Below are positions 1 through 19,630 of a stretch of DNA of 64,000 nucleotides, piece after piece. This DNA is from Dehalococcoidia bacterium (GTDB lineage Bacteria > Chloroflexota > Dehalococcoidia > SZUA-161 > SpSt-899): positions 226 through 64,225 of the forward strand of contig JAWOBX010000036.1 of the NCBI GenBank assembly GCA_046484125.1. The letters are read 5' to 3'. Positions within the stretch are counted from its first letter, which is position 1, and every line of letters starts with the position of its first letter. Made by a program: the position numbers and the translations under genes. The notes beneath the pieces were generated by a model. That model ran no database searches, had not been told where the DNA came from, and worked only from the letters and a program-made list of their open reading frames with translations.

Positions 1-247
1 AAAAGGTTCCCACACTAGATGAGACAATCCGGATGCAATTACCAAATACGCGCTTTTAATATTGACCATCAGCAAATACCCGTGATATCCTTTTACCAAA
101 ATTTAGTTATTCAACCTGGAAACCAATTTGAACTGCAACGGGAGTCATTGCAGTATATGGGTAACAATAGAGCATCCAGCTTTTATGAGCCTTATTAGTA
201 ATCCGCTGCGTCGGATGTCATTGTCTGTGATATATAAGGGAGAGGCT

Positions 248-2959
248 ATGCGGGCGAATCACTTTGAAGCCACCAGAACAAGTGATTGGGGATTGCTGAT
301 ATATCAGTTCGGAAATAGCGATGTATACTTTAATGACGAGGGACCATTACCCCGCATAGAGAACTTTGCAGCGCACCTAGAGTTGCTCGCGACGTGTCTG
401 AACGAAGGTGGAGGAACTCCCGTTCCGGTGAACGGGCCTTCGGGGAGCCCCTCAGGGATTGACATCAGTGATTTTCAAGAGAGCCGGCGAACAATATGTC
501 GCAGGGCCAAGAATGATGAGGAACCGGTTATCGTGAATAATTTCCACTTCCCGATTCTTAGTGAAGTACTGCGTAATATTATTTTTTCATACCCTAACTT
601 AACATCATGGAAGATATGCCCCATCCTTACTGATCAAGAACCCAGGCAGCACCAGGATACGCGCGATATCATTCCGCTGTTAGTAACCTACCTGCAAGCC
701 TTCGAAAAGGTTTCTCACTGTTTTGAGCAGGTTGACCCTATGATTATAGAAAAGGAACCTCACAATTATAATACCGTACTGGAGTGTTACGAGTATTTCC
801 GCAATCAGCTTGAACCGAAGGTCCGCGAAGCCCGGGCGGTATTGTTCAACATTACTACTGGTACACCTGCAATGAGCTTTGCCGCTGGACAGATTTTTGC
901 CACCAACCCACGAATCAGCTTCCTTTATTCCCCGTGGAACGAATCCCCAAAGCCGTTGGAGATCAAGGCTTTTCACCAAAGGGTTAAGGCGAACACTCTT
1001 GATAAAGTACGCCGCATGCTGGCGCGATATGAGTTCCAGGGAGCGGCTGATGTGCTGGAATCGGAGGATAACGGATTCAGAGAGGAAGACATCGGTAACT
1101 CCCTGCAAATAATAAAGGCCCTGGCTGCCTGGAAGAACTATGATTTTACCCTGGCAAATAAGCTTCTGAAAGATTACCAGCTATTTTCTGAGGTAACACC
1201 AGGTATGAAGTCGGTATGTGAAAGGTTATCTTCCGAACAGGATCCCTTTACACCTGACTTCTGGCAGGCCAAGCTCCAGGACGTAGTTGCCCGGATGGAA
1301 GGGGACGTTTATAGCGAAGCTTACGCCGATTTGCTGGTGCATCTTCACAATTTTCATGACGTTTCTCTGCAGCGGGCGCTTAACTACCAATACCCAAATA
1401 TAAATTTTTCCGAGAACCAACTGGGAGATGATATATTAAGTCAACTCGGCGAAATCCACACAGAACATGTGCCTATAGACCAAAAGAAGTTGTACAGAGA
1501 GAATGATAGATTCCATTTTGTTTACTGGTTAAACTCAAAATACGGTAATGATCATTTCTTCAAACAGTGGTTTGAATGGTACGAAATATTCAGGTGGTTT
1601 AAGACCCAGTATGTGGATGAAAAACGTCATGAACTCATCCATACATCGCTCAACCTCCAACGCGCGTTTTATGATAACATCATCGGAAATTGGATAACGG
1701 TCCCCGAAAACCATGGCCCACGGTATTTGCTGGCGCTTGTACGTAGAAGTCTGCCTGATGATTCCTATCGGTGTCACATCCCCGGGCTGATCGAATCGGT
1801 TTGGTCGGCTCTGAATTCTGAAATGGAGTGTGACGAAATTTTACCTGATATCTCAGCCTCCAACGAGGAGATATTGGTCTCCAAACTCGAAGAAAGTTTT
1901 GGCAATATGAAAAACAGGGAGGTTGACACTATCGTTAAGTTCCTTAACGATTGGAAAGATAAGGAGCTTTCTGTTGATATAGAAAGGCTTACCGTTAATG
2001 CCCAAATGAAGCAAAAAATGAAAGATGAGCTGGAAAAGAGCGGAATAAAGCCTTTACCTCAATGGAATTATCTCATCCATGAGCAAGGTAAAAAAGAGGA
2101 TGCTCAAAAAGAGTTTAAAGTAGGCATGCTTACCCGGCTTCATCCCTGTTTGCAACCCGAGCAGAAAAAGACCCAAAATGAAGTGCGGTCAGCTTTGATA
2201 GCATATTTGAAAAACGAGAAAACCCTTGAAGAGGTATTCCGCACCTACTGCTCTCCGAAAGACAGCAGGAAAAAGTCAAGTTCTACCGGAAAGGCGGCAA
2301 ATTCTACCCGTAAAAAACCGGGATCGCAGCCCAAAAATGGCGAGAGGAAAGAGCCACTGAAAAACATTATACTAAAAAGCAATACTGTAAAAACTGAAAT
2401 GACCAGTTCTGCGGCGCTGAGCACCAATAACATCATCACCTCGGCCACTGCTCACGGAATCCTGGTAGCGGCTTCACTGCTTCGATTGGAGGGAATAAGG
2501 GAAGAAGTGAGTGTCTATTTTCATCTCAGCGAGTGTGTGAAACAGCTCGAGCAAGTTAACCGGGTCACGGTAAAGTACATATATTTAATCGGACTCGATT
2601 CGAATGCTATTGATAGAGATTCATGGGTAAGCTTTGTAGAAATGGTGAATAATAAAGAATTCAACGTACGTCTGTTCAATAAGAATAGAGAAGTTCAGAA
2701 AATCATACGGGGCGCACACCCGCAAAACGAAACTGAATATTGTTCAATTGAGTTCATCGAAACCGGTTATCCAGTATGGATGCGGGAAAAGTACCTGGAG
2801 GAACTACAAAACGATAAGAAAGCCGATACTTACTTGAAAGCAGTCAGGGCTAACTCCCGTGATAATTCGCTGTTTTCTCAGGCCAGGCAGGCCGTTGATA
2901 ATGGTAAAGATGAACCGATGAGACTGGTCTTAGAGTTGATTTCCCGACAGGACGAATGA
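248..2959 (+). CDS. Large hypothetical protein (~904 aa from ATG 248; ORF open from 128) with a CARF-like Rossmann signature (NITTGTPAMSFAAG) and an uncharacterised C-terminal region
   Basis: Long ORF. GGGAGAGG ribosome-binding site 6 nt before ATG 248. 'N-I-T-T-G-T-P-A-M-S' resembles the CARF strand-4 motif DxTxGTKAMS of Csm6-type proteins. A R-x4-H (KRHELIH) motif and an HG...SEC pair lie in the C-terminal half. 4-nt gap to the next gene. Confidence 0.5.
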   Translation: MRANHFEATRTSDWGLLIYQFGNSDVYFNDEGPLPRIENFAAHLELLATCLNEGGGTPVPVNGPSGSPSGIDISDFQESRRTICRRAKNDEEPVIVNNFHFPILSEVLRNIIFSYPNLTSWKICPILTDQEPRQHQDTRDIIPLLVTYLQAFEKVSHCFEQVDPMIIEKEPHNYNTVLECYEYFRNQLEPKVREARAVLFNITTGTPAMSFAAGQIFATNPRISFLYSPWNESPKPLEIKAFHQRVKANTLDKVRRMLARYEFQGAADVLESEDNGFREEDIGNSLQIIKALAAWKNYDFTLANKLLKDYQLFSEVTPGMKSVCERLSSEQDPFTPDFWQAKLQDVVARMEGDVYSEAYADLLVHLHNFHDVSLQRALNYQYPNINFSENQLGDDILSQLGEIHTEHVPIDQKKLYRENDRFHFVYWLNSKYGNDHFFKQWFEWYEIFRWFKTQYVDEKRHELIHTSLNLQRAFYDNIIGNWITVPENHGPRYLLALVRRSLPDDSYRCHIPGLIESVWSALNSEMECDEILPDISASNEEILVSKLEESFGNMKNREVDTIVKFLNDWKDKELSVDIERLTVNAQMKQKMKDELEKSGIKPLPQWNYLIHEQGKKEDAQKEFKVGMLTRLHPCLQPEQKKTQNEVRSALIAYLKNEKTLEEVFRTYCSPKDSRKKSSSTGKAANSTRKKPGSQPKNGERKEPLKNIILKSNTVKTEMTSSAALSTNNIITSATAHGILVAASLLRLEGIREEVSVYFHLSECVKQLEQVNRVTVKYIYLIGLDSNAIDRDSWVSFVEMVNNKEFNVRLFNKNREVQKIIRGAHPQNETEYCSIEFIETGYPVWMREKYLEELQNDKKADTYLKAVRANSRDNSLFSQARQAVDNGKDEPMRLVLELISRQDE

Positions 2960-2962
2960 GTT

Positions 2963-3817
2963 GTGAAAAAGAAGGTTGTAATACAAAAAATTGACCTTGA
3001 TACCTGCCTGACAGCATTCATCCTCGATGTTTCTGAGGAAGATGATGTTGTATCAGTTCAGTCGCAGGCAACGGATGAAGATCTGCGCAATCCTGAAGTC
3101 ATCTGTATTGAATGCGGGGGAAGTGGTCAGGTTCATTTGAACAACTTCGACCACCATGAAAGTGGAGTTTCCGAGCCGGCCTGCCTGCAGGTATTCAAGC
3201 TGATAGACGGCAGTTCGGAACTGGAAAGAGTGGTGGAATATGTTGCGAAGGTTGATACTGATCCAAAATCTATAGAACAACCTGACCGACCGGATTTCAT
3301 TTCTCTTTCCAGCCTTTTCTCCGGAATGCTTCTAGAACAAAAGGATCCGGGGCGGCAGCTTTTTGAAGGAATGGGTATATATGAAACGATCTTAGCTGAG
3401 GGAATTGATCCGTTCGGTGCCATGCCTCGGCTGTCGGAGTGGGAAGATTATTTTCAGGCCAAACAAGCCAATAGACTGTTACTCAGCCGGGAAAGTGCTC
3501 GAGTTGAGGTGTTTGAAACCGCAGGAGGCCTTAAATGCGGCTACTTGGAAAGTGAAGTCATTGGAGGACCCGGATTGATCTACAACAAGGGCTGCGATGT
3601 TGCTATTGTGTATAGCACTGAATTTGGTGAGGCAAAAATCCCTAAATTCACCATTGCCGGGAAAAACGGCATCAGGGTTGATGGATTGCTTGCCAGCCTG
3701 AACGAACTTGAGCCAGGTTGGGGCGGACCCGGACACGGGACAATTATTGCTTCACCAAAGACCGGGAGCTGGCTTCCGGCAAAAGAGGTATGCCGCATTG
3801 TGTCAAGGAACCTTTGA
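2963..3817 (+). CDS. DHH/DHHA1-family phosphoesterase-like protein (NrnA/nanoRNase-like fold)
   Basis: Motifs DLD (motif I-like), NNFDHHE (DHH motif III) and a C-terminal GWGGPGHG (DHHA1 GGGH-like) are present. Translationally coupled to the upstream gene. Confidence 0.5.
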   Translation: MKKKVVIQKIDLDTCLTAFILDVSEEDDVVSVQSQATDEDLRNPEVICIECGGSGQVHLNNFDHHESGVSEPACLQVFKLIDGSSELERVVEYVAKVDTDPKSIEQPDRPDFISLSSLFSGMLLEQKDPGRQLFEGMGIYETILAEGIDPFGAMPRLSEWEDYFQAKQANRLLLSRESARVEVFETAGGLKCGYLESEVIGGPGLIYNKGCDVAIVYSTEFGEAKIPKFTIAGKNGIRVDGLLASLNELEPGWGGPGHGTIIASPKTGSWLPAKEVCRIVSRNL

Positions 3818-3912
3818 TAAATATAATCGCTGTTCGAGCGATCAGACTGGCGAAACTATCACATTGAAAGGGCAATGCTATAGACAATTTCACACCAGTC
3901 GAATTACTCCCG

Positions 3913-3936
3913 AAAACAGCGTTTCAAATACAAAGG
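3913..3936. repeat. Copy a of a recurring intergenic motif AAAACAGCGTTTCAAATA(C/T)AAA
   Basis: Near-identical copies at 31585-31608 and 37674-37696. Partial AAAACAGCG cores at 3993-4001, 4028-4036 (reverse) and 37561-37569. Confidence 0.5.
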
Positions 3937-3977
3937 AATTCACCCTGCGGACGTCTTGTGAAATTGGGAACAATCCG

Positions 3978-4036
3978 TTTTCCCCTGACCGGGGAAAACA
4001 GCGATGCTGATATGCATCCGAATCAATCGCTGTTTT
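3978..4036. promoter_or_regulatory. Nested palindromes upstream of the sigma-factor gene: an 8-bp stem hairpin (TTTTCCCC-5nt-GGGGAAAA) and an 11-bp perfect inverted repeat (AAAACAGCGAT-N20-ATCGCTGTTTT)
   Basis: Read directly. Arms at 3978-3985/3991-3998 and 3995-4005/4026-4036. Lies about 75 nt upstream of ATG 4110. Confidence 0.35.
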
Positions 4037-4109
4037 AGGGTTACTTGCAGGTATTGACATGCCTGCTTCATTACTGTAAGATACCCTGATTGCCTTCTGG
4101 GAAAGATTC

Positions 4110-4892
4110 ATGGCCATAAACGAAAAATATAGTTATCTCACAGAAGAACTTTTCCAGGCCTGGCAGGGGGGTGACTCCACTGCCAGAAATATCTTTTATG
4201 AAGCAATTTTTGATTATTACTGGCCGGTTATAACTAAAAAACTTGGAGAGAAGTTTATCAGATATGACGATACCGTTAATGTTTTTTCGGAAGAACAAGC
4301 AGCGGCAATGGATATAATTGAAAAGGAATTTGATTTTTTTGAAAATAAACACCTTAATAATAAGGAAAAATTTATAGGGTGGCGTGACCCTGGCCAGTTT
4401 TTCGGCTATCTATGGAAGAACCGACTGGTACGACTTATATACGATTATTGGCAAGATAAGCCAAAAAGACCAATCTCGGGAGACGAACCGATTTATTTAG
4501 ATGATGAGAACGAGACAAGCATTCTCGATCAACAGATAAGCGGAGATTTTGATCCAGTCGATGAGGTAGCCAATGAGGATCTCAAACAACAGTTAATCCA
4601 GTGGATATTGAATAATAAAGATAGAGTCTCAGTAACAAACTGGTTGACCCTGGGCGCGTATTGTGTTGCATTGACTGAAGGTTACAATAATCAAGGCAAA
4701 GGCAAGCACGAGTTTAACGCTAGAGTCGCTGAATTGATGGGAATACCTGTTGGGAACCAGCTCAGGACGAGAATCAACCATATGTTGAATCAAATCAGAG
4801 ACATTATGAAGGATACAGGTGATTGGGAGCAATTTCGCTATTTTTTTGAAGATAGTGATGATGAAAACGGTGGTGAAGATGAGAATGGGTGA
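4110..4892 (+). CDS. ECF-type sigma-70 family RNA polymerase sigma factor with an internal insert and an acidic C-terminal tail
   Basis: The N-terminus (EELFQAWQGGDSTARNIFYEAIFDYYWPVITKKL) matches sigma-70 region 2. A region-4 helix-turn-helix (AELMGIPVGNQLRTRINHMLNQIRDIM) is present. The C-terminus is DE-rich. Confidence 0.6.
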   Translation: MAINEKYSYLTEELFQAWQGGDSTARNIFYEAIFDYYWPVITKKLGEKFIRYDDTVNVFSEEQAAAMDIIEKEFDFFENKHLNNKEKFIGWRDPGQFFGYLWKNRLVRLIYDYWQDKPKRPISGDEPIYLDDENETSILDQQISGDFDPVDEVANEDLKQQLIQWILNNKDRVSVTNWLTLGAYCVALTEGYNNQGKGKHEFNARVAELMGIPVGNQLRTRINHMLNQIRDIMKDTGDWEQFRYFFEDSDDENGGEDENG

Positions 4893-4994
4893 AATGAAAT
4901 GTCGTTTACAGCCGCTAGATTATTATGGAATTGTAAATCAGCATATTTTGACTGAGTAGCAAGATGGGATAAAAATAATACTGGTGAAGAAAGA

Positions 4995-7397
4995 ATGAGT
5001 TCGGAAAAGGCACTAACGTGTACTCAATACGCGCCGTATATATTTGATTACATCGAGGGGGCGCTTGATCAGGAACAGAAATTATCTGTAGCCTCTCATC
5101 TATCGCGGTGCACCGATTGCCTGCAACTGCTAGCCACTTTGAAGCAGAAACAGGCAGACTATACAGATGCACGGCCGATTGGCGGGATACTGACGCTAGA
5201 TCTTGCCGATAGATCGGTTATCGATGATATTGTTCAATATCTATTGCATAATGAGGCCCAGCAGAAACATATCGGGCTATGCAATATGCTGATATCGGCG
5301 CAATGGCAACTGCGTTCCCTGTGGCTGTTACAGGGGCGGCTATACAACGAGCTGCGCAGACAGGGGAAAAAGGCGATGATGATCTCCCCTGTAGTACTGC
5401 CGGAAATCATGACAGAAGGAATAGAATCATCAGAATGTGAATATATCTTGATATATAACATCGGGCATTTTCCTGATTGCTGGGAAGCGATTCAGGAGTT
5501 ATCGGCGGCAGGCATTAATGTCGTTGCCAGTATTAGTGAGAACGATCTGCAGCTTGGTGAGGAATTGAGCCAGGGCGTTGTTACGGCGAATTGTCATATC
5601 ATATCATTTGCGAATAGAGATCCGGCCACGGTTTATGCTACAGAGCAAAACCGGTTTAATCAGTACCTGAACCAGCGAAAATCAGCACTGATCAATGAAC
5701 TGAATCAGCGCCCGGATATTAAGGAACTGGTCGCGTATCTATATTTATTTGACACTTTGGGAATCGCGGCACCGGCTTCACTGCTGGCTCGAATCCTCAA
5801 AACGGATGAAAATGAGATAATAATGAGCCTTGATGGTACGACTTCACTAGCCTATAGAATCAGGAAAAAGCCTCCAGTATTCTATTGCACTGAAAACGAG
5901 CTTGTAGCCAACGCCATGCGCCATGAACTAATCAAAGACGCTGATCGGGAAAACAAATACAAAGGCATCATAGCGGCAGCCGGGCCCCAAAATAGAGATG
6001 AATCCTTCACAGTAATGATGCTCTTTCACATGCTCGAAAGGCGAGGCGAGCGGATACTCGCCAGAAATCTGTATAAGGATAATCAGGAACAAATCGAAAA
6101 TCTATGGAAAGAACTGGGTGCGCGGGAACTCGTTTCATGGGGTATTACATTGCGTGATCTCTGCCTGTATGAGGGTGCCAAGAATGTGTTGAGGAAAGGC
6201 ATTGAAAAGCAACCAGAAAATATCTATCTTCGGCATGCTCTGGCTACTGTCATGGAAAGACAACGTAAATATCCCGAAGCGGAAGCCGAATTCCGTCAGG
6301 GATATGATATAGATCCAGACAATATCTTCTTGCTCCAGGCCTGGGGCGATATGGAACGGAAACGATCTGTTCAAAGCCGAACAGAGGACAGGCGCAGTGA
6401 GGCCCTCGGACTTTTCCAGAAAGCTCAGTCTATTGATCCTGAAAATCTGCATGTTCTGGTGTCACTGGGGAACCTGGAAGCTGAGACCGGTGACCATCGA
6501 ACTGCTACCGATTACTTCGATAGAGCACTGGAAATTGATCGTTATAACCTTTACGCATTACATTCCAGGGGAGAATTGTTTAGGAGGCAACGGAAGTGGG
6601 CCGAAGCCGCTTCCGATTATGAGAAGGTTATTGAAATAATGCCGAAAAACGTTCCGGCTCATCATGCACTGGGGCAGATTGATTTGGAGCGGGGTCATTT
6701 TAAAAAGGCGATGGAGCGTTTTCATAAGAGAATTTATAAAATTGATCGGGAAAGTAAATATACCCTTCATTCTATCGGTAACCTGTACATCGAACTGGCT
6801 GATATTACTGGTAATGATAATTACATGAGCAATGCGTTCAATTACCTTGAACGTGCCCGCCAGGTCGACCAAGAAAACATTGAAACCTATACTTCGCTGG
6901 CCAAGCTGGAGAGAAAACAGGGCAACTATACAGCGGCGCTGGAAAATCTCAATTTGGCGGAAAACAGGGATCCTGAAAACCTCTACGTGAAGTTGGGACG
7001 TGTGGAGGTGCTGAAGGCCCAGAGGGATATGGATAGAGTAACAGAACTGGCATATCAAGTACTTGATGATAATCCGAAAAACGTAGTAGCTATGGTATTG
7101 TATGCCAAGCTGAGAGCGGAAAGCGGGTTCTACGATGAGGCGCGAAGACTCCTTAAGGATGCCAGAACGATGGATCCCGGGAATCTTAGAATATACAATG
7201 ACTGGGGAGAAATGGAAGCTTCGGTTGGTAATTATGAAAAGGCGGTAGAAATACTAGGTGATGCTCTTGATATAGATGATGAAAACTCCTATGTTAATTT
7301 GAAGTATTCCGAGATACTCAAACGATTGGGGAACTTTGATGAGGCAGAGGAGTACCACAAGAAAGCAGGCAATTTAATGGGGTTGGATAGCTTGTGA
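4995..7397 (+). CDS. Putative anti-sigma factor: N-terminal zf-HC2 zinc finger followed by about 15 TPR repeats, with no transmembrane segment
   Basis: The N-terminus CTQYAPYIFDYIEGALDQEQKLSVASHLSRCTDCL fits the zf-HC2 anti-sigma pattern. The remainder is degenerate 34-residue TPR repeats. Sits immediately downstream of the ECF sigma gene. Confidence 0.55.
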   Translation: MSSEKALTCTQYAPYIFDYIEGALDQEQKLSVASHLSRCTDCLQLLATLKQKQADYTDARPIGGILTLDLADRSVIDDIVQYLLHNEAQQKHIGLCNMLISAQWQLRSLWLLQGRLYNELRRQGKKAMMISPVVLPEIMTEGIESSECEYILIYNIGHFPDCWEAIQELSAAGINVVASISENDLQLGEELSQGVVTANCHIISFANRDPATVYATEQNRFNQYLNQRKSALINELNQRPDIKELVAYLYLFDTLGIAAPASLLARILKTDENEIIMSLDGTTSLAYRIRKKPPVFYCTENELVANAMRHELIKDADRENKYKGIIAAAGPQNRDESFTVMMLFHMLERRGERILARNLYKDNQEQIENLWKELGARELVSWGITLRDLCLYEGAKNVLRKGIEKQPENIYLRHALATVMERQRKYPEAEAEFRQGYDIDPDNIFLLQAWGDMERKRSVQSRTEDRRSEALGLFQKAQSIDPENLHVLVSLGNLEAETGDHRTATDYFDRALEIDRYNLYALHSRGELFRRQRKWAEAASDYEKVIEIMPKNVPAHHALGQIDLERGHFKKAMERFHKRIYKIDRESKYTLHSIGNLYIELADITGNDNYMSNAFNYLERARQVDQENIETYTSLAKLERKQGNYTAALENLNLAENRDPENLYVKLGRVEVLKAQRDMDRVTELAYQVLDDNPKNVVAMVLYAKLRAESGFYDEARRLLKDARTMDPGNLRIYNDWGEMEASVGNYEKAVEILGDALDIDDENSYVNLKYSEILKRLGNFDEAEEYHKKAGNLMGLDSL

Positions 7398-7425
7398 TAA
7401 GACTAATGTCGGCAAATGAAAAAAA

Positions 7426-7449
7426 GCACCCGTTTCGGGTGCTTTTTTT
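7426..7449 (+). terminator. Rho-independent terminator after the anti-sigma gene
   Basis: GCACCCG-TTT-CGGGTGC stem-loop followed by TTTTTTT. Confidence 0.7.
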
Positions 7450-7625
7450 ATGGGATTGAAATGATTTGTGGTGGGCTGAGGCTTATATATTTAGAAAGAT
7501 GATTACAGAATCAAAAGAGCGAAAAAATTGGCATTTGAATTATTCCGGGGAATAAGCGGCTTTTAATAATGTGGAGAGGATGATATCGGGGCAGGGTATT
7601 TCAGAAAAATTTCAGGAGGCAAACC

Positions 7626-10600
7626 ATGAGACAGCCAACAATTTTTAACAGGGTAATTTTCGCAATCATATCATGCTTGCTGGTGGTTTCGGTGTTCGGG
7701 ACGTTTCCGGTTATGCTGGCGGGGGCAAGTGGATTTAATACCGGGGACACAGTCAAAACAACCGATCTGCTGAATGTTCGAACAGGGCCGGGACTCAGCT
7801 ATGACGAAATCTCGGACCCTGATTATGCCGCCAACAACTGGTGCGCACCCGCAGGGGAGGAAGGTGTTGTTCTCGCCGGACCTTCCTACGCGGATGGATA
7901 TACCTGGTACAAAATTGATTTCGGCCCTGGATTGTATACCGGGTGGTCGTCTGATCATCGCCTCGTAAAGGTGGAGGCACAAACGTTTTCAGCCGGCATC
8001 GTCGATTATGTGCCTACCAGCATAACAGAGGTAGAGGCTGGTGATTCGGTGACCATTGGTGCGAGTTTCGTCAACACCGGTAATACCGCCTGGCAATTCG
8101 TAGCCGGGGCCACGGTGTGGGATTCCAATGGGAATCAGGTGGCCAATTACAGCGAGACTCTTTCCAGCGCGCTGCAGCCGGATGAGCAGCATACCGTTAC
8201 CTGGCGCCATCCGGTAACTACTGAAGGCGATTACTGGGTCCAGTTTGGGGTATGGAAAGACACCCCCTATATATCGGAGAATTTACTGGATAAAGCACCC
8301 AGTCCATCGCAAAAGCTTATTTCAGTAACAGAACCTCAAGTTGTAGATAATGCACCCCCTGTAATTGAGAATCTTTCTGCATATCCATCTTCCATAACCG
8401 AAGGCGAAAGTGTGACGATCTCATTCTCGGTGAGTGACAGCGGTGGAAGCGGCCTGAACCGGGCTGAGTTGTGGAAAAAGTTTGGCTCTGGTAACTGGGA
8501 AGAGGTTGATCATAAATATTTAAACGGAGACCAATCTGAAGGAAGTTTTACAGATATACCTCAATCGGCAGGTAACTTTCAGTATAGTCTTCACGTGGCC
8601 GACAATGCCGGGAATCTGGTCTCTGAAGATCGGCAGGTTGAAGTCGAAGCAGATGAACCAGAACCGACGGTTTCGCCTGTTCAACCGGACCCCGCGGATA
8701 TAATTCCACCTTCGGTTGATTACTTCAACATATCACCGACCGAGATATCACCGGGCGAAAGCGTTAATGTCGATTACACTGTCTCCGATTCAGGTAGCGG
8801 TCTTAAAACAATAGAACTCTGGAGAAAGCGCGAGGCAGGGAGCTGGGAAATAATAGACCTCACGGTTATCGATGGTACTGGCGATACTCACACAACCAGC
8901 TTTATTGATAGCCTGACTTCAAGTGGCACATTTTACTATGCGCTCAATGTTTTTGATAAAGATGGTAATCAAGTTTATGAGGAATACGGCACGTCGGTAC
9001 TTGTGGTTGAGAATGACCCAACTACGACGCCAACTCCCACACCAACTGAGCCATCACCCGAATTAAACCAGCCTCCCTATGTTCCTGAAAACCCTTTCCC
9101 CGCCGATGGCGAAAGCGGGATTAAAGTCAACTCAATCCTGAATTGGAATGGCGGAGATCCTGATGGTGATGCTGTTTTCTATGATGTTTACCTAGAAAAG
9201 GAAAACTCTTCCCCGGATAAACTGCTTGTGGAAAATCTCACACATACTAGTTTTGATCCCGAAAATCTTGAATATGACAGCCACTACTACTGGCGAGTGA
9301 AAGCAGAGGATACTAAAGGCAATGTGGCGGAAGGTCCTGTGTGGGATTTCTATACCGATTCCTGTCCAGTGAATATATCCGCCCAAATTGATTCTTATAT
9401 TCCTTCGGGTTTAACGGAGGTAGAGGCTGGTAATCCGGTGACCATTGGAGTGAGTTTCGCCAATACCGGTAATACTACCTGGCAATTCATAGCCGGAGCG
9501 ACGGTGTGGGATTCCAACGGGAACCAAGTGGCCAATTACAGCGAGACTCTTTCCAGCGCGCTGCAGCCGGATGAGCAGCATATCGTTACCTGGAGCCATC
9601 CGGTAACTGCTGAAGGTGATTACTGGGTTCAGTTTGGGGTATGGAAAGACACCCCATTTATAGCGGAGAATTTGCTGGATAAAGCCCCCAGTCCATCGCA
9701 AAAGCTTATTTCAGTAACCGAATCTCCTGTTGTAGATGATACCTCCCCTGTAATCGAGGATCTTTCTGTATACCCATCTTCCATAACCGAAGGTGAAAGT
9801 GTGACGATCAATTTCAGTCTCAGAGACCGCGGAGGCAGCGGGTTGAAACAAGTGGAGTTATGGAGGAGGCAAGATACGAGTGATTGGCAGGAAGTGAATC
9901 ATAAGAAGATTTCCGGGAACTATTATACCGGCACTTTCAGCGATACCCCGCCATCAGCGGGCACCTGGGAATACGGACTTCACGTATTGGACAACGCAGG
10001 TAACATTACCTATGAGGATCAGCCGTTAAGTGTTCTGGTGGAAGAACCGGAACGGACGCCTTCACCCACGCCTTCTTCTACTCCAACCCCGTCAACCCAT
10101 CCGTATCATACTGATTTTGATTTGCACAATATGTTTGGCTTTGACAATGGCTCGATAACCGGATCGGATATTGAGAGTTACATTTCAAGCACATACCCGA
10201 CCTCTCCCATGCTACAGGAGAAGGCAATCGGAGATGCGTTTATCAATGCCGGACAAGAGTACCAAGTGAACCCTGCATTTTTAGTTGCCACTGCTCAACA
10301 TGAAGGTGGTTTTGGCACGTTAGGCTGGGCCAGTTCCCATTACCACTGCCACAACACTATGGGTTGGTGTGTTAACCCTGATCACCCCCATCCGGATAGC
10401 TGCAACTGCTACGATAGCTGGTCAGATTGCATACAAACGACAGCAGAAAGAATAGCCAACGGACCGTACTATTACAGATATTCCCCGTCAAGAGAGACTG
10501 TGGACGAAATAAGAGACGTATATGCAGAACACAAGAATACCGATACTATAGTGCGATATATGAATGATCTGTACTGGTTTTCTCAGGTCGACGTAGATAT

Positions 10601-11990
10601 CACCAATTGGGGGCCGACGGAAATAACCGTCGAAGCACGAAAATCTGCCGATAACGATATCAAAGTCAGTTATGAGTTAATTGATAAGAATAACAAAGCT
10701 ATCGAAATACCCCATGTGGCACATGCGAATCCTCCGTCAGTCAATTTAAATGGTCAATCACTAACCTTAGGTTCGTCTAATTTAGTTTTTCTGCATATTT
10801 GTTTGATGCCTCAAAATAATAGTAATTTGGATGAAATTAATGACATACGATTAAGAATAGTATTTCAGGGAGAAAAGCTGCGTCGCGTATATTATTTGGA
10901 ACCCGGTTTTGACAAAATTCTAAACATTGTTAGTTCGGGATTTGATATTACTCGTGATGGCTACAGCTTTTCAAATAATTCGTTCAACAAGGGTAAATGT
11001 TACGGCATGGCTGCAACGAGCATACTTTATTTCAATGACGAACTGGCAAGGCCATCTGGTTTTAACACTACATATGCTCTCGATACTAACACCGCGGAAC
11101 CGGCTATTGATAGATATCAAGATGAGCCTTTTCTAAACAATATCGATGACAGATCCGCATTGTTCGAGGACAACAAACTAGATATGACGGAATATGCCGA
11201 ATTAAGACGAATTCTTGGTCAACGGGGACCAGTCATAGTTATCCTACACCAGGGAATACTCACCGGGCATCATGCGGTGGTCGCTTACAAGCTAATTGAA
11301 GAGGACAATAAATCATACATTGCAATATACGATCCAAACTGGCCGTATAAACCGGTACCTAGCAACATTAAAAACGCTTTCACTTATATTGAATATGATC
11401 ATCTGACCAATGAGCTTGAGTATGGCGACTATAACCGTTTCAAATTTATTGAGGCGCGGAAGGACCCTTGGTACCAGCGTATAGAAATATTCAGTCCGGC
11501 GGAGGTTAGAGTTCGCGATTCCCAGGGCAGAACTACGGGAATGATAAACGGTCAAATTTTAGAGGAAATACCTTTCTCTTGCTACGATAATGAAACTGAG
11601 ACAGTTACTGTTTACCACCCTGATGATACGTTTATGTACGAAGTCGCTGGTAATGATAACGGATATTATGGTTTGGAGATCACATCAACAGAATTTGGTA
11701 AGACAAAGACAATTACCCTCAATGATGTACCTACCACCGGTAATTCGTCTCATCTTTACTCTATAGACTGGAAGGAATTAACTGCCGACGGTCATGGTAT
11801 CACCGTTGAGATCGATTCTGACGGAGACGGTATATTTGAAGAGAAAAGTATTCCGAACAAGAAAAGTCTGACTGTCATAACAGATAAACATGTGCCGGCT
11901 GGCAAAGCTGACGACCGGTGGAGTAACTGGGGAATTGCCATTGTGATAATTGGCCTCGCCGCTGTTGGCTACGTCGTCTTAAGGTTATAG
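7626..11990 (+). CDS. Giant secreted, membrane-anchored multidomain protein: signal peptide, SH3b, two ~145-aa repeat modules (plus a related third Ig-like module), FN3, a glucosaminidase-like muramidase domain, a papain-like (C39_2/CHAP-like) Cys peptidase and a C-terminal transmembrane anchor
   Basis: N-terminal signal peptide, then an SH3b-like segment (LNVRTGPGLSY...GWSSDHRLVKV). An FN3-like segment (YWRVKAEDTKGN). ATAQHEGGFGT resembles the glucosaminidase LESGWG motif. GKCYGMAATS...GHHAVVAY...YDPNWPY resembles a Cys-His-Asp peptidase. The C-terminal hydrophobic helix is followed by RL. AGGAGG ribosome-binding site. Confidence 0.7.
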   Translation: MRQPTIFNRVIFAIISCLLVVSVFGTFPVMLAGASGFNTGDTVKTTDLLNVRTGPGLSYDEISDPDYAANNWCAPAGEEGVVLAGPSYADGYTWYKIDFGPGLYTGWSSDHRLVKVEAQTFSAGIVDYVPTSITEVEAGDSVTIGASFVNTGNTAWQFVAGATVWDSNGNQVANYSETLSSALQPDEQHTVTWRHPVTTEGDYWVQFGVWKDTPYISENLLDKAPSPSQKLISVTEPQVVDNAPPVIENLSAYPSSITEGESVTISFSVSDSGGSGLNRAELWKKFGSGNWEEVDHKYLNGDQSEGSFTDIPQSAGNFQYSLHVADNAGNLVSEDRQVEVEADEPEPTVSPVQPDPADIIPPSVDYFNISPTEISPGESVNVDYTVSDSGSGLKTIELWRKREAGSWEIIDLTVIDGTGDTHTTSFIDSLTSSGTFYYALNVFDKDGNQVYEEYGTSVLVVENDPTTTPTPTPTEPSPELNQPPYVPENPFPADGESGIKVNSILNWNGGDPDGDAVFYDVYLEKENSSPDKLLVENLTHTSFDPENLEYDSHYYWRVKAEDTKGNVAEGPVWDFYTDSCPVNISAQIDSYIPSGLTEVEAGNPVTIGVSFANTGNTTWQFIAGATVWDSNGNQVANYSETLSSALQPDEQHIVTWSHPVTAEGDYWVQFGVWKDTPFIAENLLDKAPSPSQKLISVTESPVVDDTSPVIEDLSVYPSSITEGESVTINFSLRDRGGSGLKQVELWRRQDTSDWQEVNHKKISGNYYTGTFSDTPPSAGTWEYGLHVLDNAGNITYEDQPLSVLVEEPERTPSPTPSSTPTPSTHPYHTDFDLHNMFGFDNGSITGSDIESYISSTYPTSPMLQEKAIGDAFINAGQEYQVNPAFLVATAQHEGGFGTLGWASSHYHCHNTMGWCVNPDHPHPDSCNCYDSWSDCIQTTAERIANGPYYYRYSPSRETVDEIRDVYAEHKNTDTIVRYMNDLYWFSQVDVDITNWGPTEITVEARKSADNDIKVSYELIDKNNKAIEIPHVAHANPPSVNLNGQSLTLGSSNLVFLHICLMPQNNSNLDEINDIRLRIVFQGEKLRRVYYLEPGFDKILNIVSSGFDITRDGYSFSNNSFNKGKCYGMAATSILYFNDELARPSGFNTTYALDTNTAEPAIDRYQDEPFLNNIDDRSALFEDNKLDMTEYAELRRILGQRGPVIVILHQGILTGHHAVVAYKLIEEDNKSYIAIYDPNWPYKPVPSNIKNAFTYIEYDHLTNELEYGDYNRFKFIEARKDPWYQRIEIFSPAEVRVRDSQGRTTGMINGQILEEIPFSCYDNETETVTVYHPDDTFMYEVAGNDNGYYGLEITSTEFGKTKTITLNDVPTTGNSSHLYSIDWKELTADGHGITVEIDSDGDGIFEEKSIPNKKSLTVITDKHVPAGKADDRWSNWGIAIVIIGLAAVGYVVLRL
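8024..8456 (+). repeat. Intragenic direct repeat, copy 1 (~433 bp), with very high nucleotide identity to copy 2
   Basis: Long identical runs, e.g. ggccaattacagcgagactctttccagcgcgctgcagccggatgagcagcata, occur in both copies. Copy offset is exactly 1390 bp. Confidence 0.8.
9414..9846 (+). repeat. Intragenic direct repeat, copy 2
   Basis: See copy 1. The encoded modules (AGIVDYVPTSITEVEAG... / AQIDSYIPSGLTEVEAG...) are near identical. Confidence 0.8.
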
Positions 11991-19513: not shown

Positions 19514-19552
19514 TGTTAATGGAAGTTTAACGGAAGTTTAACGGAATGTTAA
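19514..19552 (-). promoter_or_regulatory. Pho-box-like array: four hexamers TTAACA/TTAAAC/TTAAAC/TTAACA (minus strand) at exact 11-bp periodicity, upstream of the DUF47-PiT operon
   Basis: Read directly. Plus-strand hexamers start at 19514, 19525, 19536 and 19547. Matches the TT(A/T/C)ACA-N5 direct-repeat architecture of PhoP/PhoB boxes. Confidence 0.55.
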
Positions 19553-19630
19553 CGAGTTAATTTACCGGGTTGCACAGGGGTTGACCAGAGGTTCCTTAAA
19601 TACCTCCAGTTGGCGTGGGATGGTACCAAT

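Follow-up and report, generated by a model that had tools for sequence, protein, structure and literature searches.

In the model for Csx1 and Csm6, cyclic oligoadenylate bound in the CARF domain allosterically activates a HEPN ribonuclease (reviewed in PMC8284326). Type III CRISPR systems are also connected to sigma factors, by three known routes that all use proteases. The type III-B system CalpL-CalpT-CalpS consists of a SAVED-Lon protease, an anti-sigma factor and a sigma factor that is ECF-like. The other two routes are Craspase with Csx30, Csx31 and CASP-sigma, and SAVED-CHAT with PCaspase and PCc-sigma; the two residues of the His-Cys dyad are 47 positions apart in SAVED-CHAT (H375/C422) and 67 in PCaspase (H79/C146). 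NYN proteins have been described as type III accessory RNases, for example in the Cmr/CorA locus of B. fragilis (Chi and White 2024, PMC11346440), and DHH enzymes degrade type III signals. Here we describe a gene for a protein of 903 residues from a Dehalococcoidia bacterium (assembly GCA_046484125.1, contig JAWOBX010000036.1) together with its neighbourhood. It is located at positions 248–2959 of the forward strand of the 64,000-nucleotide stretch that was analysed, hereafter referred to as the window. We consider it likely that this protein is a type III CRISPR sensor-effector of the Csx1/Csm6 kind.

The open reading frame (ORF) spans positions 128–2959. An ATG at position 248 is preceded by a strong Shine-Dalgarno sequence (AAGGGAGAGG), and the stop codon at 2957–2959 completes a protein of 903 residues. 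The NCBI gene call (P0001) comprises 808 residues and begins at codon 96 of this frame, which removes the first CARF strand, LLIYxFGNSD, together with motif I (window 248–532). Because of the Shine-Dalgarno sequence and of this N-terminal strand, which is conserved in homologs, we prefer the ATG at 248, which is likely the true start, to the database start. Every sequence string quoted in a preliminary description of this DNA, made from the letters alone, was found in the resulting frame.

The CARF domain comprises residues of about 13–240 (window 284–967, + strand) with an insertion at about residues 55–100. The PADLOC model for Csx1 (PDLC01509) matched residues 92–388 with an E-value of 2.9e-22, and the Csx1/Csm6 CARF+HEPN model (PDLC01031) aligned residues 21–472 with profile positions 9–321 out of 357 (E = 2.7e-19). 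Seven more PADLOC models named Csx1, Csm6 or CARF matched with E < 1e-3. A word-indexed protein search yielded four relatives, and 31 came from scanning 1.84 billion representatives exhaustively with HMMER; no match was confirmed when GTDB genomes were scanned with the alignment of the family. Among the 31 relatives, 29 matched the Csx1 profile and many matched the CARF1 CARF_HEPN models.

Conservation was derived from an alignment of these 31 relatives, which show 17–36% identity. Residues L17, Y19, G22, P102, Q130, G205 and T206 are invariant, and D25, T128, D137, T138, P207, M209 and Y227 are conserved to at least 90%. Two of these, G22 and D25, belong to CARF motif I (FGNSD, residues 21–25, window 308–322, + strand), which follows strand 1 and is part of the sequence LLIYQFGNSD in the 903-residue protein. 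Four others, G205, T206, P207 and M209, are located in the block NITTGTPAMS at the junction of strand 4 and helix 4 (residues 201–210, window 848–877, + strand). The preliminary description had drawn attention to this region (VLFNITTGTPAMSFAAGQIF, residues 198–217, window 839–898) as a close parallel to strand 4 of Csm6/Csx1 CARF domains. Judged by the profiles, the conservation, the fold matches and the type III context of the relatives, the parallel is far above chance.

In the AlphaFold2 model, residues 197–202 form a strand and residues 207–217 a helix. The NITTGT segment lies at their junction, the strand being the fourth of a Rossmann-like core. Block means of the predicted local distance difference test (pLDDT) are mostly between 55 and 84 in the CARF part. 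A Foldseek search of the PDB returned CARF proteins without exception among the best 25 matches, with T. thermophilus Csm6 (TtCsm6) in first place (E = 3.9e-6), followed by EiCsm6, Card1, Cdn1, Csx1-Crn2, Cam1 and Can2. The fold search and the model thus give moderate support to a Rossmann-like α/β CARF core. Profile searches, an AlphaFold model with a fold comparison and the conservation of the NITTGTPAMS block were among the checks proposed in the preliminary description, and all three point to a CARF domain.

The CARF domain is followed by a helical linker and the HEPN domain (residues of about 241–500, window 968–1747, + strand), which are assigned from the PDLC01031 match and predicted to be all-helical at low confidence. 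Helices are predicted throughout residues 240–670, with pLDDT values below 50 over residues 330–555, and the Foldseek alignments to Csm6 extend over 267–347 columns with a high root-mean-square deviation. The putative catalytic motif, R460-H-E-L-I-H465 (R-x4-H, window 1625–1642, + strand), is contained in the string KRHELIH (residues 459–465, window 1622–1642), on which the preliminary description had remarked in passing. All close homologs have R460 and H465, and in the wider alignment the corresponding columns read R-N/H-x(3-5)-H. In the relatives P0021 and P0030 this motif lies within near-threshold matches to the Pfam family PF09670 ('Csm6 HEPN'). Because R460-x4-H465 is conserved and aligned with the HEPN motif of Csm6, the protein is most likely a cyclic-oligoadenylate-activated RNase. 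To call its effector activity undefined, as had been done before, was too pessimistic, since Csx1/Csm6 proteins carry R-x4-H as their conserved HEPN RNase motif.

The relatives are found in type III surroundings. The gene for P0002 closes a cmr operon (RAMP genes, cas10, cmr3 and cmr5), where it is flanked by a Csm6-like gene and cas6, and P0003 has the same two neighbours. The gene for P0005, the closest relative with 36% identity, is located approximately 2.5 kb from cas10 of a csm operon.

Several observations weigh against a type III sensor-effector of the Csx1/Csm6 kind. The Pfam models CARF_Card1 (E = 6.6e-4) and Cas_Csm6_CARF (E = 0.016) both match below their cut-offs. The family is tiny, the 31 matches having come from a search of well over a billion sequences, and the fusion to the C-terminal domain described below was seen in one metagenome-assembled genome only. 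Beyond the CARF domain the AlphaFold2 model is of low quality (overall mean pLDDT 49.6), and the HEPN fold is modeled without confidence. Neither cas genes nor a CRISPR array were found within the 64-kb window, and the contig starts just upstream of the gene. Finally, the sequence departs from the canonical CARF motif II, which Makarova et al. are said to have given in 2014 as [DN]x[ST]xxx[RK] after strand 4. The 903-residue protein reads N201-I-T203-T-G-T-P207 at this position, with a proline in place of the basic residue. This replacement had been noted correctly in the preliminary description, as the lysine of Cdn1 (FNVTGGTKLISFA) aligns with P207. The proline extends across the family, and Csm6-like CARF proteins that are neighbours in related loci likewise read GTPAM or GMPAM; it is a trait of the group and no anomaly. 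On the other side stand the CARF and HEPN homology, the conservation of the motifs and the CRISPR context of the relatives, together with the synteny described below.

Based on these results we propose the following mechanism. The N-terminal CARF domain would bind cyclic oligoadenylate made by Cas10. Ligand binding would turn on the HEPN domain, and the R460-x4-H465 site would then degrade RNA non-specifically.

Beyond the HEPN domain the protein carries a family-specific helical extension (residues of about 501–670, window 1748–2257, + strand), which is conserved in P0002–P0004 and P0006 only and has no profile match. It is connected by a linker rich in Lys, Ser and Thr (residues of about 671–723, window 2258–2416, + strand) to an appended α/β domain, which we refer to as Xc (residues of about 724–903, window 2417–2956, + strand). 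In the alignment the homologs end at the linker. Residues of about 715–903 are missing from the three closest full-length homologs as well as from all 31 relatives, and exactly at the point where the 903-residue protein carries on, the close homologs stop with a tail rich in Lys and Arg. The C-terminal stretch is coding: it consists of 190 stop-free codons, and its codon-position GC pattern equals that of the rest of the gene.

Xc has a single detectable homolog, which makes up the C-terminal half of a protein from the type III-A loci L007/L008; the N-terminal half of this protein is an NYN-like RNase domain. The two Xc sequences share 34% identity over 92 residues (pairwise E = 1e-9), with a Smith-Waterman score of 101 compared with 31.4 ± 4.7 for shuffled sequences (z = 14.9). 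The NYN match of the L007 protein is sub-threshold (Pfam NYN, E = 4e-4, 21.3 bits versus a cut-off of 24.2). The likely start of the gene for this NYN+Xc protein (L007/L008 3367–4413) is a GTG upstream of both database calls, which omit the conserved VALFVDHEN strand. An iterative hidden Markov model search for Xc in approximately 6000 ORFs of 50 loci retrieved L007/L008 only. Metagenome contigs scanned with the Xc alignment and with the NYN+Xc protein gave no match, and a PDB sequence search with the C-terminal domain gave noise only. Queried with the C-terminal 198 residues, the word-indexed protein search found nothing, not even the parent P0001, so that negative results of this tool for short or unusual queries need caution. 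Comparisons of Xc by hhalign with the NYN half of the NYN+Xc protein and with the 284-residue and sigma-like families encoded downstream resulted in probabilities below 1%. The idea that Xc might be a degenerate NYN copy was dropped on the comparison with the NYN half.

The next gene starts 4 nt after the stop codon of the CARF gene and encodes a protein of 284 residues (window 2963–3817, + strand), which belongs to an unannotated family tied to type III CRISPR and CARF genes. This family comprises 312 clusters with 42–54% identity from bacteria and archaea; it has no name, and none of the clusters has a Pfam match. The first three contexts looked up were all type III (cmr/csm) loci, and a scan of GTDB genomes found 41 loci in many phyla. 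A tblastn search of plasmids with the 284-residue protein gave no match. Associations were counted within 9 kb of the gene in 34 loci of at least 8 kb, drawn from the 41 GTDB loci, the three earlier loci and the window. Cas genes were present in 19 of the 34 loci, CARF genes in 23 and either of the two in 24. A sigma-like gene was found in 11/34 and a zf-HC2 protein in 7/34. CRISPR arrays occurred in 11 of all loci collected.

Invariant residues of the family are D11, D13, E50, D63-H64-H65 and D98 as well as a C-terminal GWGG..H. Their order is that of DHH motifs I–IV and the DHHA1 GGGH motif. Profile searches with Pfam, PADLOC, NCBIfam and PDB gave no DHH/DHHA1 support for the 284-residue protein. 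None of 25 family members matched a DHH or DHHA1 profile even at E ≤ 10, and a comparison of the family with E. coli RecJ by hhalign resulted in a probability of 0.5%. That the protein is a DHH-type phosphoesterase is therefore a conjecture; judged by its invariant residues, it may be a metal-dependent hydrolase that acts on the signal. Such an activity would fit the tight adjacency to CARF genes, and a role in the release of a sigma factor would fit the position ahead of a sigma/anti-sigma pair. Three type III-B loci with 284-residue and sigma-like genes (L004, L005, L006; 8558–8837 and 11600–12876) also encode an 89-residue GreA/GreB-like protein, and genes of the ubiquitin-like, E2-like and ThiF kinds lie on their flanks. 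The L008 locus, too, has a ThiF gene on its flanks, together with an AAA ATPase (L051 14681–16303).

The two genes that follow encode a putative sigma/anti-sigma pair. The first product, a protein of 260 residues (window 4110–4892, + strand), matches no family by itself. It was assigned as a divergent sigma-70/ECF-like protein from its position, which is the same as in L007, and from an hhalign comparison with the sigma-like neighbours of the 284-residue family (93%, E = 2.8e-7). One sigma-like neighbour from another locus passes the threshold of Pfam Sigma70_r2, and L018, L019 and L022 have a bona fide ECF sigma factor at the position of the 260-residue protein, after which come a zf-HC2-like and a CARF protein. 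The second product, of 800 residues (window 4995–7397, + strand), is a cytoplasmic anti-sigma-like protein of the zinc-finger (ZAS) type that carries a long TPR domain. It matches Pfam zf-HC2 with 25.2 bits (cut-off 22.2) as well as TPR families, and contains the ZAS motif H35-x3-C39-x2-C42 (window 5097–5120, + strand). No transmembrane-like segment was seen in it. Over its full length it is 29% identical to the 786-residue protein of L007 (E = 9e-101). Sigma-like and zf-HC2 genes directly after the 284-residue gene recur in type III loci (L007 7205–10362; L018 903–2392), and long TPR domains belong to the zf-HC2 proteins of the window, L007, L012 and L039. We recognized no protease domain in the four module proteins of the window or in the called genes of L007/L008/L051.

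The order of genes in L007/L008 is csm4, a RAMP gene, cas6, a gene for 147 residues, the NYN+Xc gene, a CARF gene (455 residues), the homolog of the 284-residue gene, a gene for 239 residues and the gene for the 786-residue zf-HC2/TPR protein. Starting with the CARF gene, the window follows the same order. P0005, the closest relative, is encoded on the same 532-kb contig as L008, which also holds the NYN+Xc, CARF, 284-residue, sigma-like and ZAS-TPR genes in the order seen here. Since P0005 shares its contig with L008, the window looks like a compacted version of the L008 locus in which the CARF-HEPN gene has been fused to Xc.

The start of the window leaves 247 nt upstream of the 903-residue gene, and the contig (64,231 bp) exceeds the window by 231 nt. 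A comparison of the upstream 247 nt with the CRISPR repeats of related loci gave no meaningful match, and exact look-ups of P0001 and P0035 for sequence past the contig end returned no record. A hairpin (CTGCAA-CGGGAGTCA-TTGCAG) is located at window 133–153, approximately 100 nt upstream of the start codon, and a promoter-like site at window 62–91 precedes it. The hairpin is present in a single copy, and none of the CRISPR repeats of related loci matches it; an Rfam search of window 1–8000 gave sub-threshold noise only. On the downstream side, a protein of 1454 residues (window 7626–11990) has an N-terminal hydrophobic segment, a C-terminal membrane anchor and a weak match to a peptidoglycan hydrolase. 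A module of approximately 250 residues is duplicated in it almost exactly (near residues 115–360 and 560–800), and the protein is not kept beside the module in other loci. The GC content is 0.43–0.48 in the first 12 kb of the window and 0.50–0.55 afterwards, which suggests that the module and this large gene are acquired DNA. A tandem repeat with 3.5 copies of an 11-nt unit (TTAACGGAAGT) was observed at window 19516–19554.

Three other explanations of the 903-residue protein were weighed. The preliminary description had compared the AHG (residues 735–737, window 2450–2458) and HLSEC (residues 759–763, window 2522–2536) sequences of the C-terminal domain with the His-Cys dyads of caspase and CHAT proteases. 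A protease of this kind, with His736 and Cys763 as catalytic residues, would be activated by the ligand via the CARF domain and cleave the anti-sigma factor, as CalpL acts on CalpT. We regard this as very improbable. The described type III-to-sigma routes would lead one to expect a protease, and a sigma/anti-sigma pair is indeed a conserved type III neighbour; this part of the proposed link to the anti-sigma factor stands, whereas nothing points to cleavage by the 903-residue protein. The low-confidence model, α/β in this region, would also permit a layout of strand-His-Gly, helix and strand-Cys. In the only Xc homolog, however, AHG is replaced by AKG with a lysine for His736, FHLSE (residues 758–762) falls into a five-residue gap and Cys763 is a glycine, and the domain as a whole is absent from all family members. 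The protein contains 23 His and 12 Cys residues, which form 15 His-Cys pairs at distances of 20–60 residues; on this count the pair His736/Cys763 is not above chance. Its spacing of 27 residues, rightly called short before, falls below that of both the SAVED-CHAT and the PCaspase dyad. Searches of the 903-residue protein against Pfam, PADLOC, NCBIfam and PDB sequences gave no peptidase family. Foldseek found no caspase or CHAT fold for the C-terminal model, the best match being a generic α/β fold with E = 0.088, although with a single-sequence model of pLDDT 49 this is a weak test. The evidence against a caspase-like protease comes from one homolog and a weak model; it is strong, not absolute, and the caspase/CHAT (clan CD) candidate was dropped. 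Instead, we infer that Xc has no catalytic role and connects an RNase to the adjacent module as a docking or regulatory domain, because it is joined to two different RNases (HEPN and NYN) in loci with the same downstream genes.

A partner-switching role of Xc is conceivable as well. Ligand binding to the CARF domain could expose or re-orient Xc, which would then bind the TPR part of the anti-sigma factor (or the 284-residue protein) and free the sigma factor without proteolysis, with the HEPN domain active or not. TPR domains are protein-binding modules. The CARF, 284-residue, sigma-like and ZAS-TPR genes occur in the same order at two distant loci, exactly those in which Xc is joined to an RNase, and no protease was recognized anywhere in the fully visible locus L051/L008. 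STAS and CheY-like folds are among the Foldseek matches of the C-terminal model, weak and not significant as these are. Against such a switch, the interaction is purely hypothetical and the Xc model is of low confidence. L012 and L039 have the 284-residue, sigma-like and ZAS-TPR genes without Xc, and the 284-residue family is more common without a sigma gene than with one. We therefore judge a partner switch to be unlikely, and hold it to be less unlikely than a third explanation, by which the gene has been left without a type III system as an accessory gene that is orphaned or decaying, its extension being a functionless product of a lost stop codon or of an assembly error that joined two genes. 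The lack of cas genes and arrays in 64 kb would be expected for an orphan, as would a fusion in a single genome, homologs that end exactly where the Lys-rich linker starts, and a first 12 kb of lower GC content. Yet the extension shows the open frame and the codon-position GC of the rest of the gene, the catalytic and ligand-site motifs are all intact, and so are the four module genes, which are syntenic with L007; cas genes may lie beyond the contig end just upstream. An orphan gene is thus a rather poor candidate, and it is still a better one than the protease.

In the sensor-effector reading, which we prefer, the CARF-HEPN gene forms an operon with the 284-residue gene, and the sigma-like and ZAS-TPR anti-sigma genes come after them. 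Xc would dock the RNase to the neighbouring module without being catalytic itself, and the CARF-HEPN/Xc protein may be coupled to the sigma/anti-sigma pair. More tentatively, window 248–7397 could be an undescribed type III accessory module that couples cyclic-oligoadenylate signalling to transcription without a protease, in which either the signal or the anti-sigma factor would be the target of the 284-residue protein. We offer this as a possibility that is more doubtful than the assignment of the 903-residue protein itself, and that we would still place ahead of the partner switch. No description of the module or of the 284-residue family was found in the literature searched, some key type III surveys being outside its reach.

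Compared with Csx1 and Csm6 (T. thermophilus Csm6, PDB-entry 5fsh; E. italicus Csm6, PDB-entry 6tug), the 903-residue protein has the same arrangement of an N-terminal CARF domain, a helical middle part and a HEPN R-x4-6-H motif. They are also its best profile and fold matches, and its relatives occur at the ends of cmr/csm operons. Unlike them, it is about twice as long as the matched solved chains (372–468 residues), with a CARF insertion of 45 residues, a helical extension of 170 residues and an appended domain of 180 residues. It also differs in the proline of motif II and in its sub-threshold matches to the Pfam family models. By its sequence it is an unusually long, rare branch of the Csx1/Csm6 CARF-HEPN group with an extra domain. 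Adding this branch to the family and correcting a truncated database annotation is useful and unsurprising.

The neighbourhood is the more interesting part, with a widespread, unannotated family that many phyla have beside the CARF genes of their type III loci. With DHH/DHHA1 phosphoesterases, such as NrN of CorA loci and the membrane-associated DHH-DHHA1 degrader of cA4, the 284-residue protein shares the order of residues and differs in profile support. If it degraded the signal, it would represent a new class of off-switch. The link to the CRISPR-associated NYN ribonuclease runs through Xc, whose only homolog is fused to an NYN domain in a type III-A locus; the 903-residue protein has no NYN domain and shares only the non-NYN C-terminal half of the L007/L008 protein. 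With CalpL-CalpT-CalpS the locus has in common that, in type III loci, the gene of a predicted cyclic-oligoadenylate sensor adjoins those of an anti-sigma and a sigma factor; this suggests that immunity has a transcriptional arm. The sensor is a CARF instead of a SAVED protein, the anti-sigma factor is an 800-residue ZAS and TPR protein, and an additional conserved protein of 284 residues is present. In a subset of loci the sigma/anti-sigma pair follows the gene of this protein, and in contrast to the known routes, which rely on proteases, neither Lon nor any other protease domain was detected in the module genes. If the module does signal to transcription, CRISPR immunity would have a new means of reprogramming gene expression, and a coupling without a protease would make the module a fourth, mechanistically different type III-to-sigma route beside those of CalpL, Craspase and SAVED-CHAT.

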